From the NCBI RefSeq assembly GCF_022807975.1, contig NZ_CP094358.1, forward strand, positions 4,124,171 through 4,188,170: DNA of 64,000 bases, in the 5' to 3' direction. A program made the translations under genes and the position numbers. Every line of letters starts with the position of its first letter. Position 1 is the stretch's first letter. Positions 20,963 through 55,328 of the stretch are shown here, one piece after another. Source of the DNA: Abyssalbus ytuae (GTDB lineage: Bacteria; Bacteroidota; Bacteroidia; Flavobacteriales; Flavobacteriaceae). The notes under the pieces were generated by a model. It was not told the DNA's origin and made no database searches. It worked only from the letters and a program-made list of their open reading frames with translations.

Positions 20963-21175
20963 TTAGGAATCCTTTTTAGTAGGTACCAATAATTCCCGGA
21001 TATCAACATCCAGTATTTTAGCAATGCGTTTAAGGTCTTTTAAATGCGGTTGGGATTTATTATTGCATATAGCAGTGACGGTATTAGGATTTTTACCCAA
21101 TTGAGCAGCCAGTTCTTTTTGGCTAATTCCTTTAATAACCAAAACTTCTTTTATTCTATTTATTCTTTCTTCCAT
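20963..21175 (-). CDS. XRE/Cro-CI family HTH regulator.
   Basis: 70-aa protein, ELAAQLGKNPNTVTAICNNKSQPHLKDLKRIAKIL. It is a close paralog of 42686-42892. Confidence 0.8.
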   Translation of the reverse strand: MEERINRIKEVLVIKGISQKELAAQLGKNPNTVTAICNNKSQPHLKDLKRIAKILDVDIRELLVPTKKDS

Positions 21176-21371
21176 ACACTACAAAAGTAGCTAAAACAGG
21201 GGTTTTATAAAATTTCATAAGTTCTAAAATATACGCATAACCAATATAAACATATGTTTAATTTGTATTTTTATTTGAATAACCTATGAAAATATTTTAT
21301 CAACTCATAGGTTATACTTATATTTGTGTGTGCTAAATCAATAAAAACATCAATAAAACCTATTATTTAAT

Positions 21372-21671
21372 ATGAAAAAAGAAGATTTAATTGTCAGTTT
21401 AATACAATGTAATATGCAGCACTGTCAACTGGTGTTAAATCTCGAAAATATAGGATTGGAAGACAGAGTAGGGGTGTTTGACATAAACTTGATGGAAATT
21501 GTAGCATGGCTTATGTGTGCTAAAAAAACAGAAATTGATGATGAGTGGATGGAAACCTATTTAAACTTTATGAATGAAGCTGCAAACTATAAAGTTACAA
21601 GAAACGGAACTTCTTTAAAATCATTGGCAGAAAAGTGTTATGAGGAATTAAAAGAAGTTTTACCAACATAA
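21372..21671 (+). CDS. Hypothetical protein.
   Basis: 99-aa ORF in AT-rich DNA with no recognisable motif. Confidence 0.35.
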   Translation: MKKEDLIVSLIQCNMQHCQLVLNLENIGLEDRVGVFDINLMEIVAWLMCAKKTEIDDEWMETYLNFMNEAANYKVTRNGTSLKSLAEKCYEELKEVLPT

Positions 21672-22284
21672 TAAATAAAATTCAATTCAATTACTGTTTG
21701 TAAATGTTAGAGTTTAATAATTTAGGTTGGCTATACACCAATTTGCTATGATGTTATTTGAATGATAATATTTATCATTATATTACTTTGCTTGGGTAAA
21801 AGTGAGAGTTACATTTGCTGATTTACTTTAAAAAGTTTTCTTCTGCAAAGCTACTTTTACAAAGTTTAATGGAACAATCCTTACACGAAACGACGGTAGG
21901 AGAGTAGTGTAATGCGTGTGGTATGGGAATATGTTACAAAATTAGATGCTTTTTGCTTCAGTGTAAGGCTCCCTAAAAACCGAACTGTTTAAAAATAGAA
22001 AATAGTTTTAGACTTAACCCAACTTCTTCATATAAGATTTTTCCTTATTTATAACAAAAGTTGCGTTTATGCACCCAATTTTGGGTGAGTAAACACAATT
22101 AATAAAGTTTATATATATTTAGCGGTCAGCAGATAAATCCACTATTCTGAACAAAACAGATAACGCTAAAATCCGAATATGCGTATTCGTCAATTGTCAT
22201 ATTTGCCAATTATAATTCTTTTCTTTATATTTGCACCATAACTTTAAAAGTGGCGACAACACTATAAATGCGGTACAAAATGTT

Positions 22285-22794
22285 ATGAATAAAGAACATA
22301 AAAAAAAATTCGCGAGTGAAAAAGAATTTTTAGCATTTGAATTTAAGTCAAAAGCAAGAATTATTGATGACAAAATGGTCGAGGTCATTGCGCCAGATGG
22401 AGAAGTTTTTTCAGTATTGGCTCCGATTGGGATTTACACCAATGAAGAAACTCGTCATTATCAACTACACGTAATAGAATATGTTTTTGACAAAAATTTC
22501 TCCGATGACAAGGAATTAATGACCCACAATATTTGGAAAGATTTATTTCTAAATCGCGTGTCATTTATGGGTATGAGTCCCGGAGACAAACAAGGAGAAA
22601 GAACTCGAATCGGAAAAAAAATTCGCCAAATTCGGGAAGAAAAGGGAATTGAAGGAAAAGACTTAGCAAGGTTAACAAATATAGACGCTGCAAATCTCAG
22701 TAGAATTGAACGAGGTAAATATTCCGTTGGACTTGATATTCTTTCAAAGCTAGCATCTGCCTTAGGATACCATATTGACATTGTACCAAATTAA
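22285..22794 (+). CDS. Protein with an N-terminal domain of unknown function and a C-terminal XRE-type HTH.
   Basis: C-terminus reads IRQIREEKGIEGKDLARLTNIDAANLSRIERGKYSVGLDILSKLASALGY. The ORF-track start lacks an ATG and overlaps a TATATTTG -7 promoter motif at about 22225, so the start is taken at M19 (22285). Confidence 0.55.
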   Translation: MNKEHKKKFASEKEFLAFEFKSKARIIDDKMVEVIAPDGEVFSVLAPIGIYTNEETRHYQLHVIEYVFDKNFSDDKELMTHNIWKDLFLNRVSFMGMSPGDKQGERTRIGKKIRQIREEKGIEGKDLARLTNIDAANLSRIERGKYSVGLDILSKLASALGYHIDIVPN

Positions 22795-22805
22795 ATGTAA
22801 TCAAT

Positions 22806-23804
22806 ATGGAAAATTTACTTGAAAATTATAATGGCATTCAAGAATGCTATTATAAAAACGAGCATTATTCTGTTCGAGATAATGGCGCTGTACTTCGGCA
22901 TACTCCTTATAATAATCGGACCAGACCAACAGATAACAAATGGACCTTTGGAAAATTAAACAACAGAACGGGTTATTTGGAAATCGCTTCTGTTCGTATT
23001 CACAGGATAGTTGCGACTGCCTTTCACGGAGAACCGCCAACAAAAGAACACGTTGTTGATCACATAGACACAAACAAACAAAATAATCGACCATACAATC
23101 TACGTTGGGTAACAAGATTAGAAAACATTTTACTTAACCCAATCACAGTGAAGCGAATTGAAATAGCTTGTGGATGTAGTGTTGAGGAATTTCTAACTGA
23201 CCCTTCAAAATTTCGTAATAAGTTTCAAGAACCAAACTATGAGTGGATGTGTGCAGTAAACATTCAAGAAGCACAAGCAAGTAAAGAAAGGTTATTGGCT
23301 TGGGCAAAAAGTGAAAAGCCATTACAAGGAGGTTCTTTAGGCGAATGGATTTATAATCGAAATATGTCAAATCAATTTACTGACTATATTGAAGAGAAAT
23401 TAGAGTTTATAAATTCTCTAACTCCAAATGCTGTTCAAAAAGCCAGAAATTGGAAAACACCAAGTGAATTTCCTTGTTGTCCTCAGGAAAATACTCATAA
23501 TCCAATGGCTGACTATATTGCAAACCTAAATATGGGGAATGTATTTTCTCGAAACCAATATACAAGTTCGATTATTGAATGTTTTGCAATTTCCAAAGAC
23601 GAAAACACATTGTGGATTATGTGCAAAAGTGGCGACGAAAACCCAATAAAACCTTATTCTTTGGCAGAGATAACCTATCAAAACGATGTTTTCGTTCATA
23701 ATAGTCTTGGAACTTTTTTCGAAAAAGGTGGAGCAGAAAAACAATTTACTCTTACACAAGGACTTGAATGGACAGGAGGTGAAACCATTGATGATTATTG
23801 TTGA
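22806..23804 (+). CDS. HNH endonuclease (HNH_3-type), a homing- or defense-associated nuclease.
   Basis: Motif EHVVDHIDTNKQNNRPYNLRWVTRLEN. Confidence 0.7.
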   Translation: MENLLENYNGIQECYYKNEHYSVRDNGAVLRHTPYNNRTRPTDNKWTFGKLNNRTGYLEIASVRIHRIVATAFHGEPPTKEHVVDHIDTNKQNNRPYNLRWVTRLENILLNPITVKRIEIACGCSVEEFLTDPSKFRNKFQEPNYEWMCAVNIQEAQASKERLLAWAKSEKPLQGGSLGEWIYNRNMSNQFTDYIEEKLEFINSLTPNAVQKARNWKTPSEFPCCPQENTHNPMADYIANLNMGNVFSRNQYTSSIIECFAISKDENTLWIMCKSGDENPIKPYSLAEITYQNDVFVHNSLGTFFEKGGAEKQFTLTQGLEWTGGETIDDYC

Positions 23805-23939
23805 AAATAAAAATTAAATATTAACAAAATGCCGAACCGCTAACACTGGCTCATGAGTAATTGCTGCTAATGGTTAAGCTTAAGATGTTTTCTTTCAAAT
23901 CTCTCACAGTTTCTATCTTTATTTCCTTAAATAGCGGTG

Positions 23940-24415
23940 GGGCGCGGCACTTTTACATAGCGACAAATTATGGAACAAATGAACTGAGAATTCCATATTG
24001 TTGACGATATAAAACACTGCGTGTTGTTATATCTACAATTATATCAAATACGCGGTATTCGCCGTTTTACTAAAAAACATTATTTTTGAATGATAATGTT
24101 CTGCGTTATGTAACTTGAGCTTTGGTAAAAGCAGGACAGAGCGTTAAGAAAAGGTCTGGTAGACCTTTTTAGCGAATGAGCCAGATGGCACTTAAACAAA
24201 CTACAGTTTCTTTAAAAAAATTTTGCTCCAAAAGTTTCTTCTACAATGTTAATGAAATCAAAAATAAGCCGAAGGCAAATATTTTTGATTCATGAACACC
24301 TCTAAAACAATATATATTTTGTGAATAAACACTTTTTATGCGACGAGTTTACACTGAGCAAAGTCGAAGTGTAGGAGGGAAGTGTAATGGGTGGGGAATG
24401 GGATTATTCCCCTTT
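23940..24415. repeat. Composite intergenic repeat (families R2 + R1), the longest copy.
   Basis: The part shared with 49220-49445 and 54945-55215 is ttgacgatataaaacactgcgtgttgttatatctacaattatatcaaatacgcggtattcgccgttttactaaaaaacattatttttgaatgataat. The R1 part, gacgagtttacactgagcaaagtcgaagtgtaggagggaagtgtaatgggtgggg, is shared with 21845, 38160, 49395 and 50310. Confidence 0.8.
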
Positions 24416-24491
24416 ATGTTGTTGAAAACATAGAATAACTTTCACAAATAAGATTCTTTTCTTTTGTTAAATTGCAATAAATATTAACAAT

Positions 24492-26855
24492 ATGCAGACA
24501 GGTTTTTTTGCTTACGGCTCACAAATTCCTTCAAGTGGTGAGTGTATAGAAGAAGCGATCAAAATTATTAATAATGATGATAACGATGTGAAAATTGAAT
24601 CTTGGAGAAATTTGAAAGTATCTGGGTCATTAATAATTTCTAATATATTAGCTTCAATAAATAAATCTGATTTCTTCTGTGCAGATCTGACAGGGCTTAA
24701 TGATAATGTCTTATTTGAAATAGGATATGCTTTAGCAAAAGGTAAACCTCTTTATTTAATTAATGATACTACACAAGAAGAATCTTCAAGGAGATTTAGA
24801 GAATTAGGTCTTTTGTCTACTGTTGGATATTACCCATACACTAACACACAAAATATTGTTGATGGTTTTTATAGAATGACACCTTATGATCCAGTTGATA
24901 AATATTGGGAGGAACTGACTAAAACTTTACCAAATGATATAGAAAGGAAGGCTCTTTTAGTTTTAAATAGTCAGGTAGAAACAAATTATAATCTTGAAAT
25001 AATTAATCAAGTAGAATTTTTTAATCTACCAAATATTGTAGATGATGCTAGTGAAAGTATAGTTCAACCTATTAGTTGGTATATTGAGCAATTATATTCT
25101 GTACCAGCTGTTTTAGTACAATTCTCTTCACAGGCTAGATCAGGGTATGAAATTCATAACTCTAAATGTGCTCTTGTATCTGGAATTGCATTGGGTCTAG
25201 GATTAAAGCTTCAAATGATTGCTGAAAAACCTTATGGAGTGCCAATGGATTATAAGGAACTCCTTAAAAAATTTAGTAATAGAAAAGAGTGTGCTTTAAT
25301 AGTAACAAATTACTTAGGTGAATTAAGAGATGAAATAGCCTCTTTACTTATAGATAGTGATAAAAAAACAATTGAGAGGAGAACTAGAAGCGAACTCCAA
25401 AATGTCAATTTTGGTGAGGCGATTGCTGAGCACGAAAGTAATAATCTTTATGAATATTATGTGGATACATATCACACTCAACAACTAATTAAAAATGAAT
25501 ATAATATCGTAATTGGAAGAAAAGGTTCAGGGAAAACAGCAACGCTTTATTATTTAAAAGAAGACTTAGCCAGAGATGTAAGGAATAATGTGATACTAAT
25601 AAAGCCAATAAATTTTGAGGTTGATGGATTAATTTTACTTATGGAGGAATCTAATAGTGAATTTGAAAAAGGTTTTTTAATAGAAACAATTTGGAAGTTT
25701 CTGATATATACAGAAATTGCTAAATATTTATATTCAAAAACAAAAGATAAACCTCTCTATGCATTGACTGATGTTGAAACAAAATTTATAGACTTCATCG
25801 AAAAAAATAAGGCTATATATCTTACTGATTTCTCAACGAGGTTAGAAGAACAAATAAAAATTCTAAAGGAAAATAATATAAAAGATATTGGTGCAGGAAA
25901 TAATAAAGAATTTAGGTTAAAAGTTTCAGAGTTGCTTCATCAAAGTTCTATTTATGAAATGAAAAAGTATTTTGGTGATTTAATCCCTAAGAAACATAGG
26001 CTGATAGTACTTATTGATAACTTAGATAAGTCCTGGCGCAAAGATTCCAAAATTAATATTCTTAGCAAATATATACTTGGATTATTAGGGGTTTCAGGTC
26101 GGATTTTTCAAGAGTTATCTTATATAAAATCAACGAATAAAAATATTGCATTTCATCTTACTATATTTCTTAGAAGTGATATTTTCAAGCGTGTAATTTC
26201 TTTTGCGAGGGAGCCTGATAAAATTGAAGTTTCTAGATTAAAATGGGATGATCCAGAGATTTTGTTTAGAATTGTAGAAGATCGTTTTACTCAACTAAGT
26301 AAAGGGAAATATACTGGAGATGATCTTTGGGAAAAGTTTTTCGTGAAAAAGGTAAAATCTATGGATACTAAAGAATATATAACTAATAGTATTTTTCCAA
26401 GACCTAGAGATATAATTTATTTTTTCAAAACCTGTAAGGATATTGCTATTTCTAGGGGGCATAATATTATAGAAGAGAATGATGTTATTTCTGCTCATAC
26501 AGATTATTCAAGTTGGGTTTTCAAGTCAGTTTTAGTAGAAAATGGAATTACTTATAAACAGATGGAAGATTTTATGTATGAATTGATGACTAGTAATGAA
26601 ATCATAAGCATAGAACAAATAAATGAAAAGATGACTAATGCTAAAATACTTAATCATGACTCGGATGATCTAGATAGGTTTATTGATCATTTGGTAAATT
26701 TAACAATTATTGGAAGAGAAACAGAGAAAGGCAAATTCAGTTTTGAGTATGATGTAGATAATGCAAAAAAAATCAAAATATTGTCTAAAAAATTAGATTC
26801 CAATAGATTTAAAATTCATCCGGCGCTAGTACCATATTTAGAATGTAAAACCTAA
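24492..26855 (+). CDS. Candidate anti-phage defense protein. It fuses an N-terminal nucleoside 2-deoxyribosyltransferase-like or TIR-like domain to a central P-loop NTPase, with a C-terminal helical region.
   Basis: The N-terminal segment FFAYGS...FFCADLTGLNDNVLFEIGYALAKGKPLYLI matches the deoxyribosyltransferase/TIR-like signature. Walker A is IGRKGSGKTA, at about residue 345. Walker B-like is LIVLIDNLDKSW. It is flanked by an HNH nuclease and by repeats. Confidence 0.55.
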   Translation: MQTGFFAYGSQIPSSGECIEEAIKIINNDDNDVKIESWRNLKVSGSLIISNILASINKSDFFCADLTGLNDNVLFEIGYALAKGKPLYLINDTTQEESSRRFRELGLLSTVGYYPYTNTQNIVDGFYRMTPYDPVDKYWEELTKTLPNDIERKALLVLNSQVETNYNLEIINQVEFFNLPNIVDDASESIVQPISWYIEQLYSVPAVLVQFSSQARSGYEIHNSKCALVSGIALGLGLKLQMIAEKPYGVPMDYKELLKKFSNRKECALIVTNYLGELRDEIASLLIDSDKKTIERRTRSELQNVNFGEAIAEHESNNLYEYYVDTYHTQQLIKNEYNIVIGRKGSGKTATLYYLKEDLARDVRNNVILIKPINFEVDGLILLMEESNSEFEKGFLIETIWKFLIYTEIAKYLYSKTKDKPLYALTDVETKFIDFIEKNKAIYLTDFSTRLEEQIKILKENNIKDIGAGNNKEFRLKVSELLHQSSIYEMKKYFGDLIPKKHRLIVLIDNLDKSWRKDSKINILSKYILGLLGVSGRIFQELSYIKSTNKNIAFHLTIFLRSDIFKRVISFAREPDKIEVSRLKWDDPEILFRIVEDRFTQLSKGKYTGDDLWEKFFVKKVKSMDTKEYITNSIFPRPRDIIYFFKTCKDIAISRGHNIIEENDVISAHTDYSSWVFKSVLVENGITYKQMEDFMYELMTSNEIISIEQINEKMTNAKILNHDSDDLDRFIDHLVNLTIIGRETEKGKFSFEYDVDNAKKIKILSKKLDSNRFKIHPALVPYLECKT

Positions 26856-26914
26856 AGAAAAGGTAAGTTGAACCTATATATTATGTAAAATAGAACTTCA
26901 ATTTTTGGTAATGG

Positions 26915-27050
26915 CCTCAGAAAACTTTATTCATTTCATTCTTAATTGTTTTTTAAAGGAATTCATGAATCTTGAATTCGCAAGCTCATTCTGCGATTTG
27001 GTTAAAACAATCCGCCTTCGTTTCACAACGTCGGACAAGTAGGTGAGTGG
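26915..27050. repeat. Intergenic repeat of family R3.
   Basis: cctcagaaaactttattcatttcattcttaattgttttttaaaggaattcatgaatcttgaattcgcaagctcattctgcgatttgg...caatccgccttcgtttcacaac.tcggacaagtaggtgagtg. Near-identical at 44195-44330. Confidence 0.85.
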
Positions 27051-27477
27051 AGCGGTCATATTTTAGGGCATGGTAAATGCAATTATCCAGTGGATGATAG
27101 TATTTAACAGTGAGCTAATGCGGCTGGTTAACTTCAATCACCAGCGCGACAAGCCCATCCATCACTAAAAATGTACACTGTACATTTTCTTAACGCTCTG
27201 GAGTCTAAAATATAGTGGAACGAATGTTTTTATTGTTTCCAAAATAGAGAGAGCAGGGTGGAGGGTATAGTTCTCTTTTGAAGATTGTTAATGGAGTTGC
27301 CATGTAAGAAACGCAGAAGAAATTAATAATGAAGAAAATAAAATTCTATATTTGCAGCCTAATTAATTATTAAAAACAAAAAAGTAATATCTATGAGCAT
27401 ACTTAAATTACATAAATCGGGCGCTAAAACGCGACTTTCCAGGTTGATGTTCTAGGTAAAAAACTTTTTAAAAGATA

Positions 27478-27520
27478 GTAAAAGCGTCCAAAAAATAAGT
27501 TTTGGACGCTTTTTTTATAT
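27478..27520 (+). terminator. Rho-independent terminator.
   Basis: Perfect 11-bp stem agcgtccaaaa/ttttggacgct followed by a T-run. Confidence 0.7.
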
Positions 27521-27852
27521 TTTTTTTTCAAAATTAACAGATGCCTTTACATCGTGTAAGTTTTAGCTACATAACCAATAATCAAAGAGTTATCTAAACT
27601 CTGAATATCTGCACAAAAGCGGACCAGGATTTTATTGTTTTAACTTATTGATAATCAATAAAATAAATTTGAATTTTATTTGTGTAATTAAAAAAAGCAT
27701 TCCATATTTGCACCGCAATAAAGCAACAAAATAATATAAAAAACGAAGTACAATGTTCAGTTATCAATTAAACAAAAACATACAGAGAGAACCAGGTTCT
27801 CTTACTTGTTTGCTTCGTGACTTCTTTTATCATTAAATAAAATATTTTAATT

Positions 27853-27890
27853 ATATGAAAAGTAGTCCGAAGTTTTAAAGTTTCGGACTT
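27853..27890 (+). terminator. Rho-independent terminator.
   Basis: agtccgaa...ttcggact followed by ttttttt. Confidence 0.65.
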
Positions 27891-27995
27891 TTTTTATGGT
27901 TATATCTTCCTGAAATTTTTCCGAAAGACGATTTTAAAAATTAAGGAGTCAATAAATATTGACCTCCCTGAAATCAAACATCTCAAAATTAAATA

Positions 27996-29387: not shown

Positions 29388-29389
29388 AA

Positions 29390-30082: not shown

Positions 30083-30083
30083 A

Positions 30084-30828: not shown

Positions 30829-30838
30829 TGGTTTTCAG

Positions 30839-30901: not shown

Positions 30902-30905
30902 AATT

Positions 30906-31007: not shown

Positions 31008-31012
31008 ATTTC

Positions 31013-32536: not shown

Positions 32537-32860
32537 GTGGGTGTGATAATGATGCACTGGTTTTACAGCCAGTGCATTTTTTATTAATAAAAAGAGGAGT
32601 TCATATTAACCAAAAATGGGTTTTTCATATAATGGCAAAGCCTGCCTACAATGAATTTGTTCAGTCGGGTTGTATACAATTTGCTATGATGTTTTTAGAA
32701 TGATAAAATACTGCGCTGTCAGGAGATCAGGGTGGAGGAGTATACCTTATTTTCTTTTATGTAAAATTTAGATTCAACAGCTTTTATTTTGTTAAACTTT
32801 TTTTAAAAAATATCAAAATAAAAGTAATACTATTAATTTTGAATGCAATTATTTTAAATA

Positions 32861-37982: not shown

Positions 37983-38295
37983 TTTTTAGGAATTATGTAA
38001 ATTGCTTTTACCTAATATCATTGCCGATATAGGGCTAAAGCCTATATATTGTTGTCGCGTTATGTAACTTTGCTTTGGAAGAAAAAGCAATTATAAATAA
38101 CTACTTTCTTTTAGGACTTTTCTTTCCAAAAGTTTCTTTAAAAATATTGGAATACTTTTTATACGACGTAGGAGGGAAGAGGGAATGTGTGTGGAATGGT
38201 TTGTTCTCTCTAATTTCCAATTAATTACGGAATCCCATAATAAGTTAATTATTACAATTTTGTATATTTAAAAAGTATAAAAACACTTTTAAGAA

Positions 38296-44141: not shown

Positions 44142-44194
44142 AAATATGTAAAATAGAAGCAATGAGTTTTTACCCAGATGAAGCGTTGGCAAAA

Positions 44195-44330
44195 CGGCCT
44201 CAGAAAATTTTATTCATTTCATTCTTATTGTTTTTTAAAGGAATTCATGAATCTTGAATTCGCAAGCTCATTCTGCGATTTGGTAAAAACAATCCGCCTT
44301 CGTTTCACAACTTCGGACAAGTAGGTGAGT
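44195..44330. repeat. Intergenic repeat of family R3, second copy.
   Basis: Near-identical to 26915-27050. Confidence 0.85.
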
Positions 44331-44423
44331 GTAAAGCTGTTAATTCTTTCTCCAACCTTGATTTTTTATATCTTTTTTTCTTGATAAAAAAGATATAAAG
44401 TACTTTAGCTATAAACCAACCAT

Positions 44424-45062: not shown

Positions 45063-45199
45063 TTCTATTTTACATAATATTAGAAGTTCTAATTCAAAGA
45101 ATATAGTGGTAGAATGGAGAATAAAGCAAGTGTACAGAAATTTTTAGCAAGAAGCTCATGAATGCTTCGCATTTGTGTGTAAAATAAATTGTGATAACA

Positions 45200-47117: not shown

Positions 47118-47578
47118 AATTTTTAATATTTATCATTTTAGCTTTGTGCTTTATAAAATTATCCAAAAATATCTTAAGAAGAAATTGAGACATTTATTTT
47201 AAGGGTACTAGGGTTTGGAATTTATTTTTAGCAAATTATAGCATATTCTTTTCAACATAACTATAAATATTCGAAGATTTAAATTGTTAAAGTAAATTTA
47301 AAAAAAGAATAAATATTTTTATTGATACCCAATTTAAATACTTTAATTTTCTCATATAATAGATAATGTAATTCCTAAAAAAATATATATGAAAAAAATA
47401 AACTTGCTATTAGTAATCTTTTCTTTTATATATGGATGTAGAAGGTATATTGATATGATAGAAAAATTTATTAACGCTTTTGATTTTTCAAACGAAATAA
47501 CAGAAAGTCAATCTTAAATGGTCTAATGAGGGTAAAGAGAAATTTGGGTGGACAGATTATTTTGTAGTTAGTGGATTT

Positions 47579-47854
47579 ATGATGATAGGAAATGCAGTTC
47601 AAACAGAAAAAGAATTTAAGAATTTGTACACATTAAAACCACAAATTAGTCAAGACCGAGAATCTGTTGAATTGAAACAAATTGTGGTTGCTAATATGGC
47701 GAATTCAGAAGCAGATTGTGATTGTAGATGGGAGGATTATGGAACATGCCCTTTGATAGGGGGTAATTGTGTAGATGATGGTTGCGATGAAACCACTTTG
47801 GGCTGTGGATGGCTTTTATTGCAAAGTTGCGATAGAAATTGCAGATCATATTAA
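47579..47854 (+). CDS. Cysteine-rich small peptide (8 Cys in the last 45 residues), a candidate bacteriocin or RiPP-like precursor.
   Basis: ...MANSEADCDCRWEDYGTCPLIGGNCVDDGCDETTLGCGWLLLQSCDRNCRSY. A membrane thioredoxin-fold gene follows. Confidence 0.4.
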   Translation: MMIGNAVQTEKEFKNLYTLKPQISQDRESVELKQIVVANMANSEADCDCRWEDYGTCPLIGGNCVDDGCDETTLGCGWLLLQSCDRNCRSY

Positions 47855-48106
47855 AGATGCTTCTATGAGTAGCTTTGTGACCATATAGTAGTGAGTATCA
47901 CTATTTATACACAGTAGTAACGAATATAAGATATTGGCTATTAAATGATCACTATCAATGAAAAATTGTATAAAATATTCCTCGGGGTTTTTTGCTTCGA
48001 GGAATGTTTACTCGATAAACTTAGGATAAATTCTAACTTTAGTAACTTCTTCTAAAAGATATAAAATACCTTTAAAAGGGGTAACTTTAAAAGGTATTGT
48101 TTTTTA

Positions 48107-48982
48107 ATGGAAAGTTCAATTAAAGCAAACATTTTTATGAATAAACTTTCTCGTAAATCATTGATTGCTATTTCAATACTATTTTTTTATTTGCTATTTG
48201 GAGTTGTTTTTAAGGGGAAGCATGAATGGATAATTTTATGTACTTTAATAAGTTCTTTCTCTATTGCTTTTTTTCTATTTGGTAGAAAAGAGAAGGTAGA
48301 TACTCTAAATTTGTATTTGGTTTTAATACTCCCAATTACCTTGTTGCTTACAATATCTTCTTTTTTTATTGGATTTAATTATTCCATAACTTATATTGTT
48401 TTTATTCCTATAAGTGCTTTTTTTGGGTTAAAGTTTGCTTTTAACAGAAATATTCTCATCCCTGTATTCTCATTTTTATTATTTGCATTTATTTCATTTC
48501 TTCTTTTCCCAAATCTATTTGTTTATATGAATAATCATGAGGCTAGAACTAACAAACCCTATAAAAAGATTACTCTTGTTAGCAAGAATAGAGATACGAT
48601 ACAATTAGATTCATCCAAAATAATTGCCCTTGATTTTTGGACAACTTCTTGTGGAGTATGTTTCAAAAAATTTCCAAGTCTGGAAAGAAATTATCTTAAT
48701 TTTAAAAACGAAAAGAATATTGAATTTTATTCTGTCAATGTTCCTTTGGAACGAGATAAGTTCGATAAAACAGTAGATCTAGTCAAAGAGTTAGGTTATA
48801 AATTCCCCACTTTATATGCAACGTCTAGTGAAGAAGTTGAAAATTTAGGAATTAATTCTTATCCTCATTTATTGATTATAAAAAATGGTAGAGTTAGGTA
48901 CGATGGAAGATTAGAGGTAAGCAAAAGCATTTTTATATATAATATAAAAAATGAATTGAATAGACTTTTGTATGAGCATTAA
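48107..48982 (+). CDS. Membrane-anchored thioredoxin-fold (TlpA/ResA-like) thiol-disulfide oxidoreductase.
   Basis: Four N-terminal TM helices followed by a C-terminal domain with the WTTSCGVCFKKFP CxxC motif. Confidence 0.6.
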   Translation: MESSIKANIFMNKLSRKSLIAISILFFYLLFGVVFKGKHEWIILCTLISSFSIAFFLFGRKEKVDTLNLYLVLILPITLLLTISSFFIGFNYSITYIVFIPISAFFGLKFAFNRNILIPVFSFLLFAFISFLLFPNLFVYMNNHEARTNKPYKKITLVSKNRDTIQLDSSKIIALDFWTTSCGVCFKKFPSLERNYLNFKNEKNIEFYSVNVPLERDKFDKTVDLVKELGYKFPTLYATSSEEVENLGINSYPHLLIIKNGRVRYDGRLEVSKSIFIYNIKNELNRLLYEH

Positions 48983-49219
48983 GAAACCTTTATGTGAATC
49001 CCTAAATTAACTACAATTTATTACACACATGAATATTTTTATCGCTTGTAATTACGACGAAATTTAATTAAAGCTTTGAGAAATCATCATGAAGATCATT
49101 AACATGAACCATAGAATTAATTAGGCATTTTCAAACTGATTGATTTGAAGCGATTTGAAATTTTAATCAAAATTTTTAGTCTACATTTTAAAATACGATT
49201 ATGGACATTTTAAATTACC

Positions 49220-49445
49220 AACTACAATTATATCAAATACGCGGTATTCGCCGTTTTACTAAAAAACATTATTTTTGAATGATAATGTTCTTGCGTTATG
49301 TAACTTGAGCTTTGGATAAAAGCGAAAGTCCTTTCTACTATTTTTTGAAAAAATTTAACGCCTAAAGCTTCTTTTCGATGTTAATGGAACACTCTTTACA
49401 CGAAACGACAGTAGGAGAGAAGTGTAATGTGTGTGGAATGGATAA
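49220..49445. repeat. Composite intergenic repeat (families R2 + R1).
   Basis: The R2 part is caattatatcaaatacgcggtattcgccgttttactaaaaaacattatttttgaatgataatgttcttgcgttatgtaacttgagctttgg. The R1 part is ttaatggaacactctttacacgaaacgacagtaggagagaagtgtaatgtgtgtggaatgg. Confidence 0.8.
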
Positions 49446-49577
49446 GAAAAGGAAAATTTAATGACATAGCGACACCTTCTTCTTATGTTATTTGAATTTC
49501 TGTCAGTGATTTTATTAAAAATTTAAAAAATCATCAGTTGGTCTAACATTTGACCTAAAGAATTTTAAAATAAATTT

Positions 49578-50234
49578 ATGAGTACTGTAATAGTTTTAGG
49601 AACTTTCCATACAGAAGTTGAAGCTTGTACATCTCAAGAGTTATTGCGTATTGTTAAACAAATATCTCCAGAGATTGTTTTTTGTGAAGCTCCTCCTGAA
49701 ATATTTCCTGATATGATAGCGGCAGAGAAGAATTTTAATACTCCAGAAATAAAAGTTATTAGAGAATTATTAAAAGAAAGCAATATTAAAATAATTCCTG
49801 TTGATGTTTATGGTATTGCCGTTGATGATAAACGTATGGATGAAATATTTGATTGGTTTGGTGAAAAAATGGAGAACTACGAGAATGCAGTTAATATTCA
49901 AATTCATGAAACATACGAAAAGGGTTATTATTTTTTAAATAGTAAAGCAAACGATAAAATTAATTTCGACAAAAAGCTAATGGAAAGAGAAATGGTTCTT
50001 AGAGAAAATAATAAAGAACTTTCTCTGGACTATATCAAATGGGTTAAATGGAATAACTATCGTGAAAATCAATGGATAGAATTAATTCATGAATATTTTT
50101 ATGAAAATAAATTCAATAGTGCTGTTTTAATGGTAGGTTCAGCTCATAGAGTTGGTTTACTGCATAAAATAATGGAATTAGAGTTTAAAGATAAATCACA
50201 TCTAACTTGGAATTTCAATTATTTGAGTAATTGA
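49578..50234 (+). CDS. Hypothetical protein.
   Basis: 218-aa ORF between an R1/R2 repeat and Gabija, with no recognisable motif. Confidence 0.4.
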   Translation: MSTVIVLGTFHTEVEACTSQELLRIVKQISPEIVFCEAPPEIFPDMIAAEKNFNTPEIKVIRELLKESNIKIIPVDVYGIAVDDKRMDEIFDWFGEKMENYENAVNIQIHETYEKGYYFLNSKANDKINFDKKLMEREMVLRENNKELSLDYIKWVKWNNYRENQWIELIHEYFYENKFNSAVLMVGSAHRVGLLHKIMELEFKDKSHLTWNFNYLSN

Positions 50235-50529
50235 TTTATTTAATAATTTCGTTTACTGGGAAAAATCTACAAAAGTTTACTCTTCTAAAGTTAATAGAAC
50301 ACTTTTTACCCAAAAAGATGGTAGGAGAGTAGGGAAATGTGTGAAATGGGATATTTCCCTACATTTTTGTTCAGAAGTGAGGGTTTCCCGTAAACAAATA
50401 CTGAATTTAATTTCTATATTTGAAAGACTCCATTGTAGTTTAAAATATAAATTACCCCTTTTAATTTATTAGTAATATAAGAACTTTAGAATGATAATCT
50501 AAAGTAAATAAAGAATACCCGTAGTTCAA

Positions 50530-52533
50530 ATGAAAAGTCCTTTTATATCTAGAGTAAAAATTAAGAATTTTCGAAATTTCTTAGATGTTGATGTCAAATT
50601 AAATCATAAACAAGTTATAATAGGAGAAAATAGTATTGGGAAAACAAATTTTTTAAGGGCAATTCAAATTATACTAGATAAAGGATTTACGGATTACAAT
50701 CGTCAACTTGATTCGAGTGATTTTCATGATAGTTTAGTTGATCCTATGGAGAATGGAGAGGAAATAACAATAACTATTGAAATAAGAAATTATGAACATA
50801 ATAGACAATTGGTAGCTCAATTTGAAGATGCCGTAGTTTCTACTGAACCACCAACTTTACAACTTAATTATAAATATTACCCAATTAAAGACGAAAATGA
50901 GTTGATTTTGAGATATCAATACGTTATTTATAAAGGTATCAATGAAGAAAAGCATTTTAAACATGATGATAGAAGCTTATTAAATATTAAAGTCATTGGA
51001 GCGTTAAGAGATGTCGAAAGAGAGTTAAATTCCAACAGAAACTCTCCTCTTTATAAACTGGTCAAGCAGTATGATATAGACCAAGATGAATTAATAGACA
51101 TTTCAGAAGAAATGAGATCGGCTGCCGATGAAATTTTGAATTTAGATGAGATAAGAGATATCAAAAAAATCATTGAGGAAAAATTTTCAACATTAGCAGG
51201 TTTACAAAGAGATAATACGGTTAATCTGCGTCCTTATGATATTGATATTGAGAGATTGCTTTATACCATTCAGGTATTCATGGGATTAAAGGAACGTCCC
51301 GTATCAGAACTCAGTTTGGGCTTAGCAAACATTCTTTATGTTTCATTAATGATGCTTTTATTGAAGGATAGAACTGTACCTCGTATAATAAAAAATGAGG
51401 ATTATCAAGGGCTAATTGATAAAGATGATGGTGAAATAATGACTGAGTGTTATGATATAAGTACTTCTGAAATAAATTATATTATAAAGGACGATATTAA
51501 CTTAGATACTCAAAAAAAACTATATGCTTTTTTTGATAAAAACAATTACCAACCACATACAATTACAATACTAGCTTTAGAAGAACCAGAAGCGCACCTA
51601 CATCCTGTTTTACAAAGATTAATATATAGAGAGGTATTGCATAAGAGTGAAAACTCTGTAATTTTTACTACCCATTCACCATATATAACAGCTATTTCTC
51701 CTTTAGAATCAATTGTTCATGGTAGATATGAAGATGAGCAAACAAAAATGTTTTCAACTTCAGATTTGAAATTGGAACAAAAAGAGAAGGAAGATATTGA
51801 AAGATATCTAGATGCTAAAAAAGGTGAAATATATTTTGGTAAGGGAGTTCTTTTGGTAGAAGGAATTACCGAGGAATATATAATACCAAAAGTTGCTGAA
51901 TTAATGGGAACGTCATTAGATGATTTAGGAATTATTGTTTGCAATATACATTCAACCAATTTTAAACCTTATGTGCAAATCCTGAATTCATTAAAAATTC
52001 CTTGGTGTTTAATTACTGATGGAGATTTTTATGAATTAGAAATCCAAGATGATAATGGAAAAGAAAAAAAGAAAAAACATTATCATCGTAATTGGGAAGA
52101 AGGTAAACCACAAAATTTTAGAGGTTTAGAGTTGATGAATAAAATGCTAGTTGACCTTGAAATAATAAAAGATGAAGATATTCCTAGTACAAATTTTTCA
52201 GAACAATTTGATTTATTGAGTGAAAATGGATGTTTTGTTGGTTTTTATACGTTTGAGGTGGATTCTATGCATGTTACAAATGAAGAAGGATTGGAAACTT
52301 TTAAAAAAGTTTATTCTGAAGTTAGGACTGGAGGAGAAAAAGAACAAGAAAACTTTAATACTGAATTAGATAACAAAAACTTTTGGAATGGTTTAAAAAA
52401 AATAGATAACAATATAAGCAAAGGTAGATTTGCACAACGTCTTTCAGCACATTTAACAATTGAAATGGTTCCTGATTATATTATAAATGCCATAAATGAA
52501 ATAATTAAGAAAGTTAAGAATATTCATGAATAA
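50530..52533 (+). CDS. gajA: Gabija GajA, an OLD-family ATPase fused to a TOPRIM nuclease.
   Basis: N-terminus ISRVKIKNFRNF...GENSIGKTNFLRAI, the ABC-like ATPase of OLD proteins. A Walker-B/D-loop region LEEPEAHLHP. A TOPRIM region LLVEGITEEYIIPKV...CLITDGD. Confidence 0.8.
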   Translation: MKSPFISRVKIKNFRNFLDVDVKLNHKQVIIGENSIGKTNFLRAIQIILDKGFTDYNRQLDSSDFHDSLVDPMENGEEITITIEIRNYEHNRQLVAQFEDAVVSTEPPTLQLNYKYYPIKDENELILRYQYVIYKGINEEKHFKHDDRSLLNIKVIGALRDVERELNSNRNSPLYKLVKQYDIDQDELIDISEEMRSAADEILNLDEIRDIKKIIEEKFSTLAGLQRDNTVNLRPYDIDIERLLYTIQVFMGLKERPVSELSLGLANILYVSLMMLLLKDRTVPRIIKNEDYQGLIDKDDGEIMTECYDISTSEINYIIKDDINLDTQKKLYAFFDKNNYQPHTITILALEEPEAHLHPVLQRLIYREVLHKSENSVIFTTHSPYITAISPLESIVHGRYEDEQTKMFSTSDLKLEQKEKEDIERYLDAKKGEIYFGKGVLLVEGITEEYIIPKVAELMGTSLDDLGIIVCNIHSTNFKPYVQILNSLKIPWCLITDGDFYELEIQDDNGKEKKKKHYHRNWEEGKPQNFRGLELMNKMLVDLEIIKDEDIPSTNFSEQFDLLSENGCFVGFYTFEVDSMHVTNEEGLETFKKVYSEVRTGGEKEQENFNTELDNKNFWNGLKKIDNNISKGRFAQRLSAHLTIEMVPDYIINAINEIIKKVKNIHE

Positions 52534-54379
52534 ATTATTTTATAGAGACCAAAATCTAATTGAAAATGACGAAAGTCAATGGGAAGCATATAATTCAAAT
52601 GGCAATACGGTAGTCATTGCTGGTCCCGGAAGTGGTAAAACAAGGGTTTTGACATTGAAGGCAATTAAATTAATTCAATCAGAAATACATTCTCCATCAG
52701 GTCTTGCTTGTATTAGTTATAGCAGAGAAACTGTTAGAGAATTAAAAAAACGTTTAAAAGAGTATGGTTATCGAAAAAACCAATATGATTTTATTGGAAC
52801 CATGCATGGGTTTTGTCTAATACATATACTTCAGCCTTTTGGACATCTATTTCCAGAATATAATATACCAGTACCATTAAAAATAGCTTCGAATGATTTA
52901 GTACGACAAATATATAATGGCGTATTAGCAGAATTAAATGTTGAGCAAATTGCTATATCAATTACCGATATTAATAAACAAAGATCCTTGTCATTTAATG
53001 GTAGTAGCGAAGTACAAATCCAAACTAATGCGTTTGAAGTACAAGCAGCTGAGCTTTTTGAAAGAAAATTATTTGAAACTGGGACAGTTGATTTTATCAG
53101 TATGGTAAATATTTCTACAAAAATGATTCGGGAGCAGGATTACATCAAAAAAACTTTAGAAGCAAGGTTTCCCTGGATTCTTATTGATGAGTATCAAGAT
53201 TTAGGAAAAGCATTGCACGAAATTGTATTAGAACTTAAGACTCAAACTGGAGCAAAAATTTTCGCAGTAGGGGATATGAATCAATCTATATATGGATTTA
53301 ATGGTGCTTATCCAGATTTTTTAAATGAATTAGACACAATGCCAGATTTTAAATCTATCCCTTTAACTTCGAACTATAGAAGTAATCAAGATATAATAGA
53401 GGGGTCAATTGACACATTAGCATTGAAACCACCTCGCTTGAAATATGCTGCAAAAAAACGTATAGATGAAAGAGCAGAATTAACATTTATTACTTGTGAA
53501 GCGGAACGACAAGAGCAATATGAGGTTGTGACAAAAAAAATAATACCTAAGTTGATTGAAAAGGGAATTTCATATAAAGACATTGGTATATTAGTGGGCT
53601 CAAATTCCTTTTTTTCTCCTGAAGTTACAGAAATGGCTACAGCATTGAAAGATGAAAATATTCCTTTTTTTATAGTAAAGTGGACTTTCTCAAACACTGA
53701 CATAGTATTTTGGTTACAAGATTGTGCTCAATGGTGTTTAGATAAAACAAAACAATCGTTCGATGAGCTTTTCAAGTTTTGGTATTTACAGCTTGAGCTG
53801 CATAATGATGATAAAATTTTATGGGAGGAAATTCGACTGAAATCTTTATTTCATGAAGTCTTAACAGAAAGTAAATTAACTTCGGATGTACTTTCTTGGT
53901 TAGAATTCATTTTTGATAAATTAAATCTTAGGGACATGTTAGCTGATTCAATTAGGTATCCTGATGAAAATCATAATTTGGATTTATTACTGGATGAGGC
54001 TAGAAACAAAAATTTAAAGGAATCTAAACTAGGTAGATTTGCGTATCTAGGAGAGCCAGAAGATGAAGTTACAGTAACTACAAGGCATAGCTCAAAAGGA
54101 TTAGAGTTTGAGGTTATAATTTTATTAGGAATGGAGGAAGGTAGGTTTCCTTATTATAATATAGAAGAAGGCTCTAGAGAAATGGAAGAAGCACATCGTT
54201 TGTGCTATGTATGTATTAGTAGAGCAAAAAGTGAATGTATATTATTACGTTCAAAAAAAATAACAATTAACACAAGAAATGGACCATGGTTAAAAGATTA
54301 TGAAGCATCACGTTTTTGGAATATTTTAATTGAAAGGTTTGGAACCGAAGAAAATACGTATGAATCTAAAGATTATTAA
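52526..54379 (+). CDS. gajB: Gabija GajB, a UvrD-like superfamily-1 helicase.
   Basis: Walker A VVIAGPGSGKTRVL. Motif II ILIDEYQDLG. C-terminal UvrD motifs TRHSSKGLEFEVIILLGM. It overlaps gajA by 8 bp. Confidence 0.8.
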   Translation: MNKLFYRDQNLIENDESQWEAYNSNGNTVVIAGPGSGKTRVLTLKAIKLIQSEIHSPSGLACISYSRETVRELKKRLKEYGYRKNQYDFIGTMHGFCLIHILQPFGHLFPEYNIPVPLKIASNDLVRQIYNGVLAELNVEQIAISITDINKQRSLSFNGSSEVQIQTNAFEVQAAELFERKLFETGTVDFISMVNISTKMIREQDYIKKTLEARFPWILIDEYQDLGKALHEIVLELKTQTGAKIFAVGDMNQSIYGFNGAYPDFLNELDTMPDFKSIPLTSNYRSNQDIIEGSIDTLALKPPRLKYAAKKRIDERAELTFITCEAERQEQYEVVTKKIIPKLIEKGISYKDIGILVGSNSFFSPEVTEMATALKDENIPFFIVKWTFSNTDIVFWLQDCAQWCLDKTKQSFDELFKFWYLQLELHNDDKILWEEIRLKSLFHEVLTESKLTSDVLSWLEFIFDKLNLRDMLADSIRYPDENHNLDLLLDEARNKNLKESKLGRFAYLGEPEDEVTVTTRHSSKGLEFEVIILLGMEEGRFPYYNIEEGSREMEEAHRLCYVCISRAKSECILLRSKKITINTRNGPWLKDYEASRFWNILIERFGTEENTYESKDY

Positions 54380-54944
54380 TTATTATGTAAAATAGAACCT
54401 ATAAGTTTAAAACGGCCTCAGAAAACTTTGGAGAAAACAATAGGCAAAGGAGTGTCATATTTTAGAGGGGTAGCAATACATTTTCTTTATTGTGATCAGG
54501 GTTAAAGTTAGTTCTGAACAATCTTAAGACGTTCTAATGTTTTCAAAAATATAGCGAGTGAGCCGTGATTGTTTCCAAACGTTTAATGAAGCCTTGATTT
54601 TTTTGTTTCTTTTTTTATCAAGAAAAAAAGATAATGCACCATTTTAAAAGTGTCGAATTGAAAACAAAATTATAGCAAGTGCTTAGAAATTTGTTCATAG
54701 ACAAATTTTAAGCTGTTGTGGGAATTTACGAGAATGCTCTGAAAAATTTTGGAACGTATATTTCCTTGAATACGCAATTTAAATAAGAAGCTAAAAGCTT
54801 TTGCTTTTTTTGGCGTTGGCAAGCGATGGATAATTATTCGCCAAATTTCTATTTTAAATTAAGGAGCTCATGAATGCTTCGCATTTGTGTGTAAAATAAA
54901 TTGATTTTATAAAACAATCGAGCGCTTGGTAGTGGCAAATTTAC

Positions 54945-55215
54945 ATAGCGACAAATTATGGAACAAATGAACTGAGAATTCCATATTTAAAATTTTAATG
55001 ACCCCAAGTACTGAATATTGTAATGAAATTAAACAGCTTCTGGGATATTTTACATAATAGAGAATTATAGCTAACGAATTAAAAATAAACAAGTCATAAA
55101 ACGGCTGTGACATAATTGTTGACGATATAAAACACTGCGTGTTGTTATATCTACAATTATATCAAATACGCGGTATTCGCCGTTTTACTAAAAAACATTA
55201 TTTTTGAATGATAAT
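54945..55215. repeat. Intergenic repeat of family R2, with an adjacent hairpin.
   Basis: cacttttacatagcgacaaattatggaacaaatgaactgagaattccatatt, also at 23945-24000. ttgacgatataaaacactgcgtgttgttatatctacaattatatcaaatacgcggtattcgccgttttactaaaaaacattatttttgaatgataat, also at 24005-24100. Confidence 0.8.
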
Positions 55216-55328
55216 TTACATTATGTAAAATAGAAAATATTTGAGTGTACTCTATTCTGTATTAAAAAACCGGGAATAAAATATTCTTTATTCCCGGTGT
55301 AATCAAATTAACTTAAAAATACTAATGT

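Follow-up and report, generated by a model that had tools for sequence, protein, structure and literature searches.

A single island of about 34 kb in the chromosome of Abyssalbus ytuae (contig NZ_CP094358.1) raises a simple question: how have gene blocks of so many kinds come to lie side by side, separated by non-coding repeats which recur from block to block? We have studied this island in a stretch of 64,000 nt, which we will call the window. A reading made from the letters alone (the sequence-only reading) had described three repeat families between the blocks, R1, R2 and R3, together with a conserved motif placed after several stop codons. It had proposed a hotspot where cassettes are exchanged. 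Our best reading is that the 34 kb which lie to the left of the chromosomal dif site are a tandem array of about eight integrative elements, each of which has used dif as its attachment site. Each element has a conserved left end (R1), a cargo of genes and a conserved right end (E3). We consider it likely that the island is a cassette array of this Xer type, integrated at dif.

The array ends at the chromosomal dif site

Every repeat of the sequence-only reading was found again at or near its reported place, well above chance. The motif placed after stop codons is the 14-mer TATGTAAAATAGAA, which has five exact copies in the window, while 0.2 are expected (Table 1). This motif plus the T which precedes it gives TTATGTAAAAT, which matches the XerD-binding arm of bacterial dif. 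The dif site of Escherichia coli is GGTGCGCATAA-TGTATA-TTATGTTAAAT, and TTATGTAAAAT itself is found as the XerD arm of Methylobacillus in a set of proteobacterial dif sites (PMC2731167). At the right boundary of the array there is a full site of 28 bp with the format 11+6+11: XerC arm, centre and XerD arm. The equivalent site elsewhere is TTGTACTATAA-TTTATA-TTATGTAAAAT; it ends the array in 48 other loci among the matches listed, metagenome loci included. It is present at most once per locus, in the orientation of R1, and always on the 3' side of R1, cargo and E3. In the window and in these 48 loci the array abuts dif directly, and the sequence beyond the terminal site is specific for each genome.

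The GC skew is positive to the left of the terminal site and negative to its right in 11 of the 13 loci with enough flanking sequence. In the same analysis of local flanks the coding strand is + in 84% to the left and - in 66% to the right. Within the window the skew has values of +0.07 to +0.21 up to 55 kb and about 0 past it, and the main gene strand flips at 55.3 kb. The format of the site, the change of skew and the change of gene strand together identify 55204–55231 as the chromosomal dif at the replication terminus. By these signs the window spans the terminus of a marine Flavobacteriaceae chromosome. The position of the locus in complete-genome records was also tried as a test of the terminus. 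It is uninformative (9% to 99% of record length), since the start of a record is arbitrary, and the local skew was used in its place. The blocks of the island have 27–31% G+C, as compared with 33–42% in the flanks. In the literature searched we found no experimental study of chromosome dimer resolution in Bacteroidota; homologues of XerC and XerD do exist in this group (PMC3091885).

Anatomy of an element and its junctions

R1, R2 and R3 had been taken for three independent families. They are in fact pieces of one modular non-coding unit. R1 and R2 form the conserved left end of about 165 nt, which is opened by a hybrid site; in the alignment this element has sharp ends, and its 5' end is the 3' end of what had been called R2. 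R3 lies within the right end, E3. The order of the unit is hybrid site, R1, cargo, E3, site ii and site i (both on the - strand), a spacer, and finally dif or the hybrid site of the next element. Among the matches listed, about 100 loci from genomes have this order, as have 105 of the 120 from marine metagenomes; in these more than 200 loci neither the order nor the orientation with respect to dif varies.

In the window the R1 core, GTAGGAGRGWAG-N3-4-AATGNGTG, has five copies, all of them on the + strand, at positions 21896, 24371, 38168, 49411 and 50321. Chance would give none, and the window has no copy outside the island. Each core lies upstream of the gene to which it had been assigned. 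Comparison of the window with itself (blastn) gives two pairs for R2, 23997–24097 with 55115–55215 (100% over 101 nt) and 24033–24132 with 49222–49323 (98%), and one for R3, 26910–27049 with 44193–44331 (96%). Two other pairs are 23933–23999 with 54921–54987 (90%) and 45149–45191 with 54861–54903 (98%). The hairpin with 12-bp arms that had been described in R2 is imperfect: 12 nt are set against 13 nt.

The hybrid site consists of the XerC arm of dif, a 9-nt spacer and a variant XerD arm, TTATGTAACTT. A site of this form (C-9-D) opens R1 in most other loci. When another element follows, the + site is TTGTACTATAA-TGTTCTGCG-TTATGTAACTT, with the same XerC arm, and it runs directly into R1. The XerD arm of the inverted site i, when read on the + strand, is the exact complement of the XerD arm of dif; site i is kept at 88–97% in many loci. 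Its distance to the + site is usually about 36 nt in other genomes and 128 nt in the window, because R2 lies there. Site ii lies about 120 nt upstream of site i and has the consensus TGTATCTATAA-TTAGCCG-TTATGTAAAAT-(a/t)gccgctaccaa. Internal sites have centres of 7 nt or 9–10 nt; a centre of 6 nt is found only in the terminal site. After the inverted half-site at 45067–45077 there is a reversed piece of module C of R1 (45149–45191).

The arms show the junctions to behave like products of recombination. In 21 of 31 loci the left hybrid site and the terminal dif have different XerC arms. Position 7 of the terminal XerD arm varies with the host (A in 22 cases, T in 14, C in 11), and in the internal sites it is A in 112 of 124 cases. 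This is the pattern predicted for a crossover between the XerC arm and the centre. The left junction would then combine the chromosomal C arm with the centre and D' arm of the element, and the right junction the C arm of the element with the chromosomal centre and D arm. From site to site the elements measure 0.7–8.4 kb, with a median of 4.7 kb (n = 25). Their cargo ranges from 0 to about 7 kb and may have either orientation; elements without cargo, of about 0.8 kb, do exist.

Conserved structured ends

R1 is modular. Optional modules appear at fixed points, and some copies have an additional hairpin in the loop of the 3' hairpin. The conserved hairpins take up about 130 nt after the hybrid site, and among them hairpin D covaries: we find the pairs ATGC/GCAT, ACAC/GTGT, AAAC/GTTT and GCGC/GTGC, and T-G wobbles are frequent on the + strand. 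Copy E has no hybrid site because its 5' end is truncated.

E3 opens with an XerD-arm half-site, TTATGTAAAAT-AGAA, directly after the stop codon of gajB. An alignment of 21 genomes gives a strong consensus, for which 61 pairs are predicted by Alifold; compensatory changes are seen in 18 of them, and there are several G-U pairs on the + strand. When the window is compared by blastn with the R1 loci, E3 is present in at least 34 of them (54380–54835 is conserved), usually 2–5 kb downstream of R1 and in the same orientation. Rfam was searched with the whole window at the gathering score and with 20.5–56 kb at E <= 5; R1, R2, R3 and E3 have no match. In the latter region the only matches of Rfam 15 above 30 bits are tRNA, YrlA and His_leader, none of them over R1 or E3. 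We regard R1 and E3 as new conserved structured elements which are not in Rfam.

Other identities of R1 were considered and rejected. An extracytoplasmic-function (ECF) type promoter (GGAAC-N16-CGTA) does not fit, since the would-be spacer covaries with sequence past the would-be -10 box. In a small peptide gene the substitutions should be conservative; instead they follow the stem. There is no Y1/HUH gene nearby and the copies are not dispersed, against an IS200/IS605-type palindromic element (PATE) or a system of repetitive extragenic palindromes (REP) with a RAYT transposase. The core motifs of the hammerhead and other ribozymes are absent. An invertible promoter is not indicated either: a segment of 45 nt after copy E is rearranged with respect to other genomes, but not by simple inversion. 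R1 had also been proposed as the promoter of its cassette. This does not hold in general: in 43 of 180 cases R1 is followed first by the end of a convergent gene, whose stop codon is 1–58 nt away.

An optional module of about 75 nt is found after R1 in the window (50360–50400) and in about 10% of the other loci. It has the form ...TTTACGGTTTTCCCTCA...ATTCCTAC; each of the two motifs shows complementarity to GTAGGAGGGAA, the conserved loop of hairpin D. The copy in the window has the first of them in reverse orientation. To judge from its motifs, this module could provide an alternative pairing or an inverted repeat for protein binding.

Distribution and transfer between genera

We searched the R1 core in one genome per species and obtained at least 120 matches. 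About 105 of those listed are the same element in marine Flavobacteriaceae; the remainder are chance matches in other phyla. The genera concerned include Aquimarina, Algibacter, Maribacter, Winogradskyella, Lacinutrix, Polaribacter, Tenacibaculum and Zobellia. When two R1 matches are found on one contig they lie in adjacent 8-kb blocks, among the matches listed; the complete genomes among them show a single place each, which suggests that R1 occupies one place per genome. A generic spread through the genome, which would have spoken against a special locus, is not indicated by the matches listed. Nor is the locus identical and syntenic in all relatives: it differs between them, and the core genes which flank the island in the window are absent from the R1 loci compared. 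The family is undescribed in the papers and databases which we searched.

Cargo of the window is found in other genera beside the same end elements. In Lacinutrix himadriensis GajAB lies directly after its own R1 (78% identity in nucleotides, 77–85% in amino acids). The block 39195–42282 is found in Yeosuana marina (78% in nucleotides), where E3 follows directly. The pair formed by an XRE gene and a 134-aa gene has a counterpart with 61–78% amino acid identity in locus L104, which also has the 218-aa gene (44%); the latter is found with the same identity in L033. The 212-aa gene is present in Jejuia and Psychroserpens (65–69%), and the prfH and TPR genes in Tenacibaculum, next to their own R1 (49–56%). 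The same end elements flank other cargo in other genomes: the array has defined boundaries, as the sequence-only reading had proposed, and is not a random accumulation. The boundaries had been described as promoter-bearing 5' elements and recombination-prone 3' elements; they are built instead on dif-like XerC/XerD sites, in an array placed at dif.

Some elements are nearly identical in different genera. Lutibacter litoralis (L065) and Algibacter mikhailovii (L074) share 4.1 kb from R1 on with 99% identity, and a Croceitalea genome (L114) has the same R1-cargo-E3 element with 94% over 4.9 kb; the stretches matched are L065:3099-7957, L074:1-4068 and L114:961-5819. The homology of L065 with L114 begins at 3099, inside R1, about 30 nt past the hybrid site of L065 (approximately 3042–3072). 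Psychroserpens (L014) and Algicola (L062) are 98.8% identical over 3.4 kb. The left flanks differ between genomes which share elements with 94–99% identity. Near-identical elements in different genera indicate horizontal movement, and the degree of identity points to recent transfer between genera.

Many of the metagenome contigs (L121–L240) stop no more than about 100 nt from the R1 core. Short-read assemblies are thus broken by these elements, and cassettes close to dif are probably under-represented in metagenome-assembled genomes.

The elements have no protein in common

An integrase or recombinase had been expected close to the island. Pfam detects no recombinase or phage gene in the window. 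We also clustered 558 open reading frames (ORFs) from the neighbourhood of R1, all against all, and found no dominant family. Pfam assigns 159 different families to 144 neighbouring ORFs from about 30 other loci, among them LytTR two-component systems, DNA methylases, MFS and ABC transporters, oxidoreductases and TonB receptors. No integrase, other recombinase, transposase, Rep or capsid family is recurrent in these 144 ORFs, and PHROGs finds in them no Rep or structural protein. The cargo is therefore broad, not limited to defence and mobile-element genes as had been supposed for the island.

Proposed integration at dif

Since no recombinase is encoded by the elements, use of the host XerC and XerD is most likely; by analogy with integrative mobile elements exploiting Xer (IMEX) these proteins would catalyse the integration. 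Each new element would enter at a regenerated dif: the terminal XerC arm, once joined to the chromosomal centre and XerD arm, would again form a functional site. From this order of entry it follows that the Gabija element, which is nearest to dif, is probably the newest one, and that the cassettes further to the left are older. The decay of cassettes does grow with the distance from dif, as expected if new elements enter there.

A more specific route can be proposed by analogy with the phage CTXφ. The circular + strand of the element would fold into a forked hairpin which mimics dif; XerC would exchange one pair of strands, and replication would complete the integration. R1 and E3 would be signals acting in cis, for replication (as an origin), transfer or packaging by a helper that acts in trans. 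On this single-stranded DNA (ssDNA) route we are close to undecided, leaning slightly against it. In its favour, each unit has a + site with an over-long centre and, tens of nt away, an inverted site whose arms are complementary to it and whose centre is not. The XerD arms pair at 9–11 of 11 positions, and the inner 6 nt of the XerC arms pair as well. In some compact junctions the outer XerC arms of the inverted and + sites change together, for example TTATGTGACTA with TAGTCTCATAA. The covariation of R1 and E3 on the + strand fits folded ssDNA signals or RNA alike.

Several observations weigh against a dif array built in this way. The forked hairpin is weak: it is the fold of minimum energy in three of six junctions, with z-scores from -0.5 to -5, and for this reason we rate the ssDNA step as no more than plausible. 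The simple model gives no account of the XerD half-site at the start of E3, right after the cargo. Several boundaries of cargo, such as 39195 and 42283, have no recognisable site, so that other processes must also shuffle the island. To the right of dif the skew of the window is weakly negative at most, over the 9 kb of that flank which the window contains, and the single locus per genome is a statement about clustering among the matches listed. No XerC or XerD gene is present in the window. A helper or a free form of the element was not detected: the unit has no blastn match in 50,697 GenBank phage records, the pattern of the R1 core has none in IMG/VR, and 120 metagenome contigs show no terminal redundancy which would reveal circular or excised forms.

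Comparison with known systems

The closest parallel is found in IMEX of the CTXφ type (CTXφ and RS1 of Vibrio cholerae, Ypfφ, CUS-1φ). They also sit at the chromosomal dif without a recombinase of their own, and they have two inverted dif-like sites tens of nt apart, with complementary arms and non-complementary centres. In both cases dif is regenerated on one side, which leads to tandem stacking, and on the other side there is a hybrid site which would not support excision. In CTXφ attP1 and attP2 are inverted and 90 bp apart, with centres of 12 bp and 5–7 bp (PMC4246890); the elements of the window have 9–10 nt and 7 nt. The attP of CTXφ folds in the + single strand; there is one strand exchange by XerC, then replication, and the process is irreversible and regenerates dif (PMC4246890). 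The differences are also clear. IMEX of the CTXφ type have genes for Rep, coat, assembly and regulation, whereas here there is no conserved protein, but about 600 nt of structured ends (R1 and E3) around a free-form cargo. No Rep, coat or assembly gene characteristic of a filamentous phage genome is found in the window or in the 144 ORFs. Site ii and the XerD half-site at the start of E3 have no counterpart in CTXφ, and the host phylum is Bacteroidota. The elements share with IMEX the chromosomal dif, the lack of an integrase, dif-like sites in each unit (one + and two -) and mobility between genomes. By this comparison they may be described as a variant of the IMEX kind, which would work like the CTXφ subclass without being a member of it.

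The dif modules of Acinetobacter, found on plasmids (pdif) and in the chromosome, resemble our elements in their discrete cargo (in Acinetobacter resistance genes, toxin-antitoxin pairs and others) bounded by sites of XerC/XerD type, in the lack of an own recombinase and in the alternating orientation of the sites; here R1-cargo-E3 lies between + and - sites. The Acinetobacter modules have bare 28-bp sites with 6-bp centres and are mostly carried by plasmids. In contrast, our elements are at the chromosomal dif, have long structured ends and show a 6-nt centre only in the terminal site; 28-bp sites with 6-bp centres are not found on both sides of the cargo, although the orientation alternates.

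Integrons have arrays of functionally diverse cassettes, poor in promoters, with the newest next to the insertion point; their recombinase, a relative of the Xer family, is provided by the platform, and the site at which they recombine would be active as a folded single strand. Our array is similar in its diverse, promoter-poor cassettes and probably in having the newest one beside the insertion point, and its recombinase would likewise not be encoded by the cassettes. It differs by the absence of an IntI gene, attI and a Pc promoter: there is no tyrosine recombinase gene in the window and none is recurrent in the neighbourhoods. The sites are dif-like, without the R''-L''/L'-R' organisation. 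The cassettes have several genes, in either orientation, and the units between them are conserved in sequence, while attC is conserved in structure.

In Bacteroidota there are other arrays of acquired protective genes with repetitive intergenic sequences, also integron-like: the rAID-1 clusters of Bacteroidales, which have immunity genes as cargo and a conserved gene of the XerD family at one end (10.1101/471110). We find no such gene heading our arrays or linked to them; the cargo is broad and the location is dif. Finally, ssDNA phages are integrated at dif in Flavobacterium (PMC9719478), and microvirus proviruses at dif-like sites in Bacteroidetes, some of them with an extra inverted dif-like site (PMC3091885). 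These prophages (φCjT23-like and microvirus proviruses) are like our elements in phylum, attachment site, size and, in some cases, the extra inverted site. They carry Rep and capsid genes, which the elements of the window do not have, and our elements share no detectable sequence with the phage records. None of the systems compared combines a location at the chromosomal dif with free cargo, long structured ends and the lack of any conserved protein.

Alternative explanations

The covariation in R1 and E3 might come from structured RNAs, with R1 in the role of a 5' leader or riboregulator and E3 in that of a 3' trailer, terminator or non-coding RNA. Such RNAs would accompany accessory genes, and the dif sites would be incidental. 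The compensatory changes and G-U pairs are indeed on the strand which is sense for the cargo, hairpins are optionally inserted in loops as in many RNAs, and the downstream module is complementary to loop D in about 10% of loci. We consider this explanation unlikely. Folded ssDNA predicts the same covariation, Rfam gives no match even at E <= 5, and the architecture of the sites is left unexplained. By inspection the consensus of R1 and E3 has no obvious Bacteroidetes TAnnTTTG promoter or intrinsic terminator; TAnnTTTG motifs do occur upstream of genes of the window. A leader role is not general either, since 24% of the R1 copies face the 3' end of a convergent gene. A role as RNA would be compatible with a dif array as an added function. 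A model in line with the sequence-only reading is different: conserved units would be patches of homology, and the cassettes would be swapped by homologous recombination after DNA uptake, without Xer. Under this model there is no reason for every array to end in a canonical dif whose XerD arm is specific for the host, and the altered spacers of the hybrid sites, the inverted dif-like sites with complementary arms in each unit and the position of the array at the switch of skew are left unexplained. We find it quite unlikely for these reasons, even if the units are 75–100% identical within and between genomes, which is enough for RecA within a species. The R2 copies of the window, which are 100% identical, do suggest gene conversion, and certain cargo boundaries have no site at all. 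Homologous recombination may be a secondary contributor.

The array could also be a graveyard of decayed ssDNA prophages (φCjT23-like, microvirus or inovirus) or of their satellites, inserted at dif, in which viral genes have been replaced by host genes. Integration of such phages at dif in Flavobacterium and Bacteroidetes, the extra inverted site of some microvirus proviruses and a median element within the size range of ssDNA phages all agree with this origin. Decay should leave another picture, however: here a diverse and intact cargo lies between conserved non-coding ends. The 144 ORFs have no recurrent Rep, capsid or other phage family, none is found in the window, and the phage records and IMG/VR give no match. 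Such an origin thus appears very unlikely. As for generic interspersed elements of the REP, BOX or MITE (miniature inverted-repeat) type, or the bacterial interspersed mosaic elements (BIME), which would be dense here by chance, we find them hardly credible. They would account for a modular mosaic with hairpins and no coding capacity, and unrelated repeat families are also present in the window at 10.6–19.5 kb. But all five copies of R1 in the window are inside the island, matches on the same contig are adjacent, with a single place per complete genome among the matches listed, and the order and orientation relative to dif are fixed in more than 200 loci.

Cargo of the island

The features of the array are collected in Table 1. 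The gene calls of the sequence-only reading are essentially correct by Pfam and PADLOC. An M78/ImmA peptidase (gene 41500–42282) is identified as CapP by PADLOC (9e-60). It is preceded by a small gene (41118–41519) which could be a CapH-type partner, and a PDC-M36A-like gene lies in divergent orientation at 39195–40124. From this arrangement 39195–42282 may be a regulated candidate defence module; Yeosuana marina (L020) has the same module, with 61–85% amino acid identity. An imperfect palindrome of 119 nt (67%) lies at 42494–42612, between the CapP block and the next cassette.

A protein of 787 aa (24492–26855) has a weak resemblance to nucleoside 2-deoxyribosyltransferases in its N-terminus (5e-5, below the Pfam cut-off) and a weak match with AAA_16. 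PADLOC gives no match for it. It may be an uncharacterised defence gene which forms a cassette by itself. The prfH product has the RF-1 domain of release factors. Downstream of rtcB, prfH and the TPR gene there are three tRNA-like modules (30795–31086), described before as broken tRNAs. Rfam gives scores for tRNA of 36 and 32 bits and for YrlA/Y-RNA-like sequences of 33 and 30 bits, below the gathering score, but ARAGORN calls no tRNA. They look like a Y-RNA-type partner of a cargo-borne RtcB repair module.

Table 1. Repeats, recombination sites, end elements and cargo blocks of the island (positions in the window)
Feature	Position	Strand	Description
TATGTAAAATAGAA copy	26882	+	26 nt past the stop at 26855
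TATGTAAAATAGAA copy	44145	+	3 nt past the stop at 44141
TATGTAAAATAGAA copy	45063	-	
TATGTAAAATAGAA copy	54384	+	4 nt past the stop at 54379
TATGTAAAATAGAA copy	55222	+	XerD arm of dif
Chromosomal dif	55204..55231	+	TTGAATGATAA-TTTACA-TTATGTAAAAT; right boundary of the array
Hybrid attL-type site, diverged	21758..21788	+	TTGAATGATAA-TATTTATCA-TTATATTACTT; leftmost recognisable junction, by comparison with other sites
Hybrid attL-type site	24086..24116	+	TTGAATGATAA-TGTTCTGCG-TTATGTAACTT; R2/R1 junction, boundary of two stacked elements
Hybrid site, degenerate	38039..38070	+	XerC arm decayed, then TGTTGTCGCG-TTATGTAACTT; read from the sequence
Hybrid attL-type site	49275..49306	+	TTGAATGATAA-TGTTCTTGCG-TTATGTAACTT; 10-nt spacer
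Inverted dif-like site i, attP2-like	55047..55075	-	GTTAGCTATAA-TTCTCTA-TTATGTAAAAT; 7-nt centre
Inverted dif-like site ii, degenerate	54938..54966	-	Read against the consensus
Site ii, second copy	~23950-23980		Within the repeat 23933-23999
R2 spacer (site i to + site) plus XerC arm	55115..55215	+	
R2, other copies	23997-24097; 49186-49323		The first is 100% identical to 55115-55215
Remnant junction	32690..32767	+	R2-like fragment, XerC-like arm TTAGAATGATAA, insert of ~50 nt, TTATGTAAAAT; between SPFH and TetR-exporter cassettes
XerD-arm-like half-site	37993..38003	+	TTATGTAAATT; 11 nt past the OEP stop codon
XerD-arm half-site, inverted	45067..45077	-	Abuts the stop codon of the 212-aa gene
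R1 copy A	21756..21937	+	Modules A, B and D; nhmmer E = 4e-30
R1 copy B	24085..24413	+	Two optional inserted modules, extra hairpin in loop D
R1 copy C	38042..38210	+	nhmmer E = 1e-29
R1 copy D	49274..49449	+	Most canonical; nhmmer E = 2e-43
R1 copy E	50251..50359	+	nhmmer E = 6e-14
E3	54383..54847	+	Non-coding right end of ~470 nt; nhmmer E = 1e-108
E3, decayed 5' part	26881..27260	+	Half-site, GGCCTCAGAAAAC, two inserted hairpin modules (the former R3); by eye
E3, second decayed copy	44144..44400	+	Same R3 insertions, internal deletion; read against the E3 consensus
Block	20963-21671		XRE and 99-aa ORF; probably an older remnant
Block	21758-24085		Diverged hybrid site, R1 copy A, XRE-like gene and HNH nuclease, site ii, R2
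Block	24086-27260		Hybrid site, R1 copy B, NDT-like/AAA gene, truncated E3 with R3 insertions
Block	~27300-32690		rtcB, prfH, TPR gene, Y-RNA-like elements, SPFH gene
Block	32690-38030		Split site remnant, TetR-ABC-HlyD-OEP exporter genes, half-site at 37993
Block	38039-44400		Degenerate hybrid site, R1 copy C, PDC-M36A-like gene, CapP block, XRE, 134-aa gene and AbiV, truncated E3
Block	~44400-49275		212-aa gene with inverted half-site, insertion sequence remnant (DDE transposase), ABC ATPase, small ORFs, thioredoxin-like gene, R2
Block	49275-50250		Hybrid site, R1 copy D, 218-aa gene
Block, dif-adjacent element, probably the newest	50251-55203		R1 copy E, GajAB, intact E3, sites ii and i, R2
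Gabija cargo	50530..54379	+	GajA 50530-52533, GajB 52526-54379; PADLOC 1e-195 and 1e-189

Other repeats in the flanks

The window also has other repeats, outside the island. In positions 10600–19500 there are separate non-coding families, richer in G+C. A unit of 248 nt is repeated four times at 17204–18205, units of 300 nt are found at 13330–14137 and 18104–18912, and microsatellites of 10–11 nt at 14428–14543 and 19272–19343. They flank a two-gene unit (14803–15624 and 15621–17150) without Pfam match, and are unrelated to R1 and E3, save for a weak E3-like match of 35 nt. A tandem duplication of 90 nt (87% identical) at 6457–6636 lies inside an ORF (6432–7094) without Pfam match. In the right flank there is a perfect palindrome of 38 nt at 62394–62431.

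Implications

These results make the dif sequence recognisable for Flavobacteriaceae. They also define a cassette family which can be recognised from DNA alone, in more than 100 species and in ocean metagenomes of the TARA type. The use of dif and the Xer machinery would explain how a large island without integrase or transposase can have sharp boundaries between its modules.

A wider possibility, which we can only put forward tentatively, is gene capture of the integron kind without a dedicated integrase. Cassettes without any protein of their own, with about 600 nt of structured ends (R1 and E3), would exist as ssDNA circles, mimic dif, be loaded by XerC and XerD at the terminus and maybe be released again. 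If this is true, Gabija, AbiV and CapP-regulated modules, as well as ordinary accessory genes, would be moved between genera in this way, and R1 and E3 would parasitise a helper. If the mechanism holds, the family would stand between IMEX, the dif modules of Acinetobacter and integrons: elements which carry only cargo and are served by housekeeping recombinases. The stack would then be a log of the order of acquisition, with the newest element beside dif, useful for following the flow of defence genes in these abundant marine heterotrophs.

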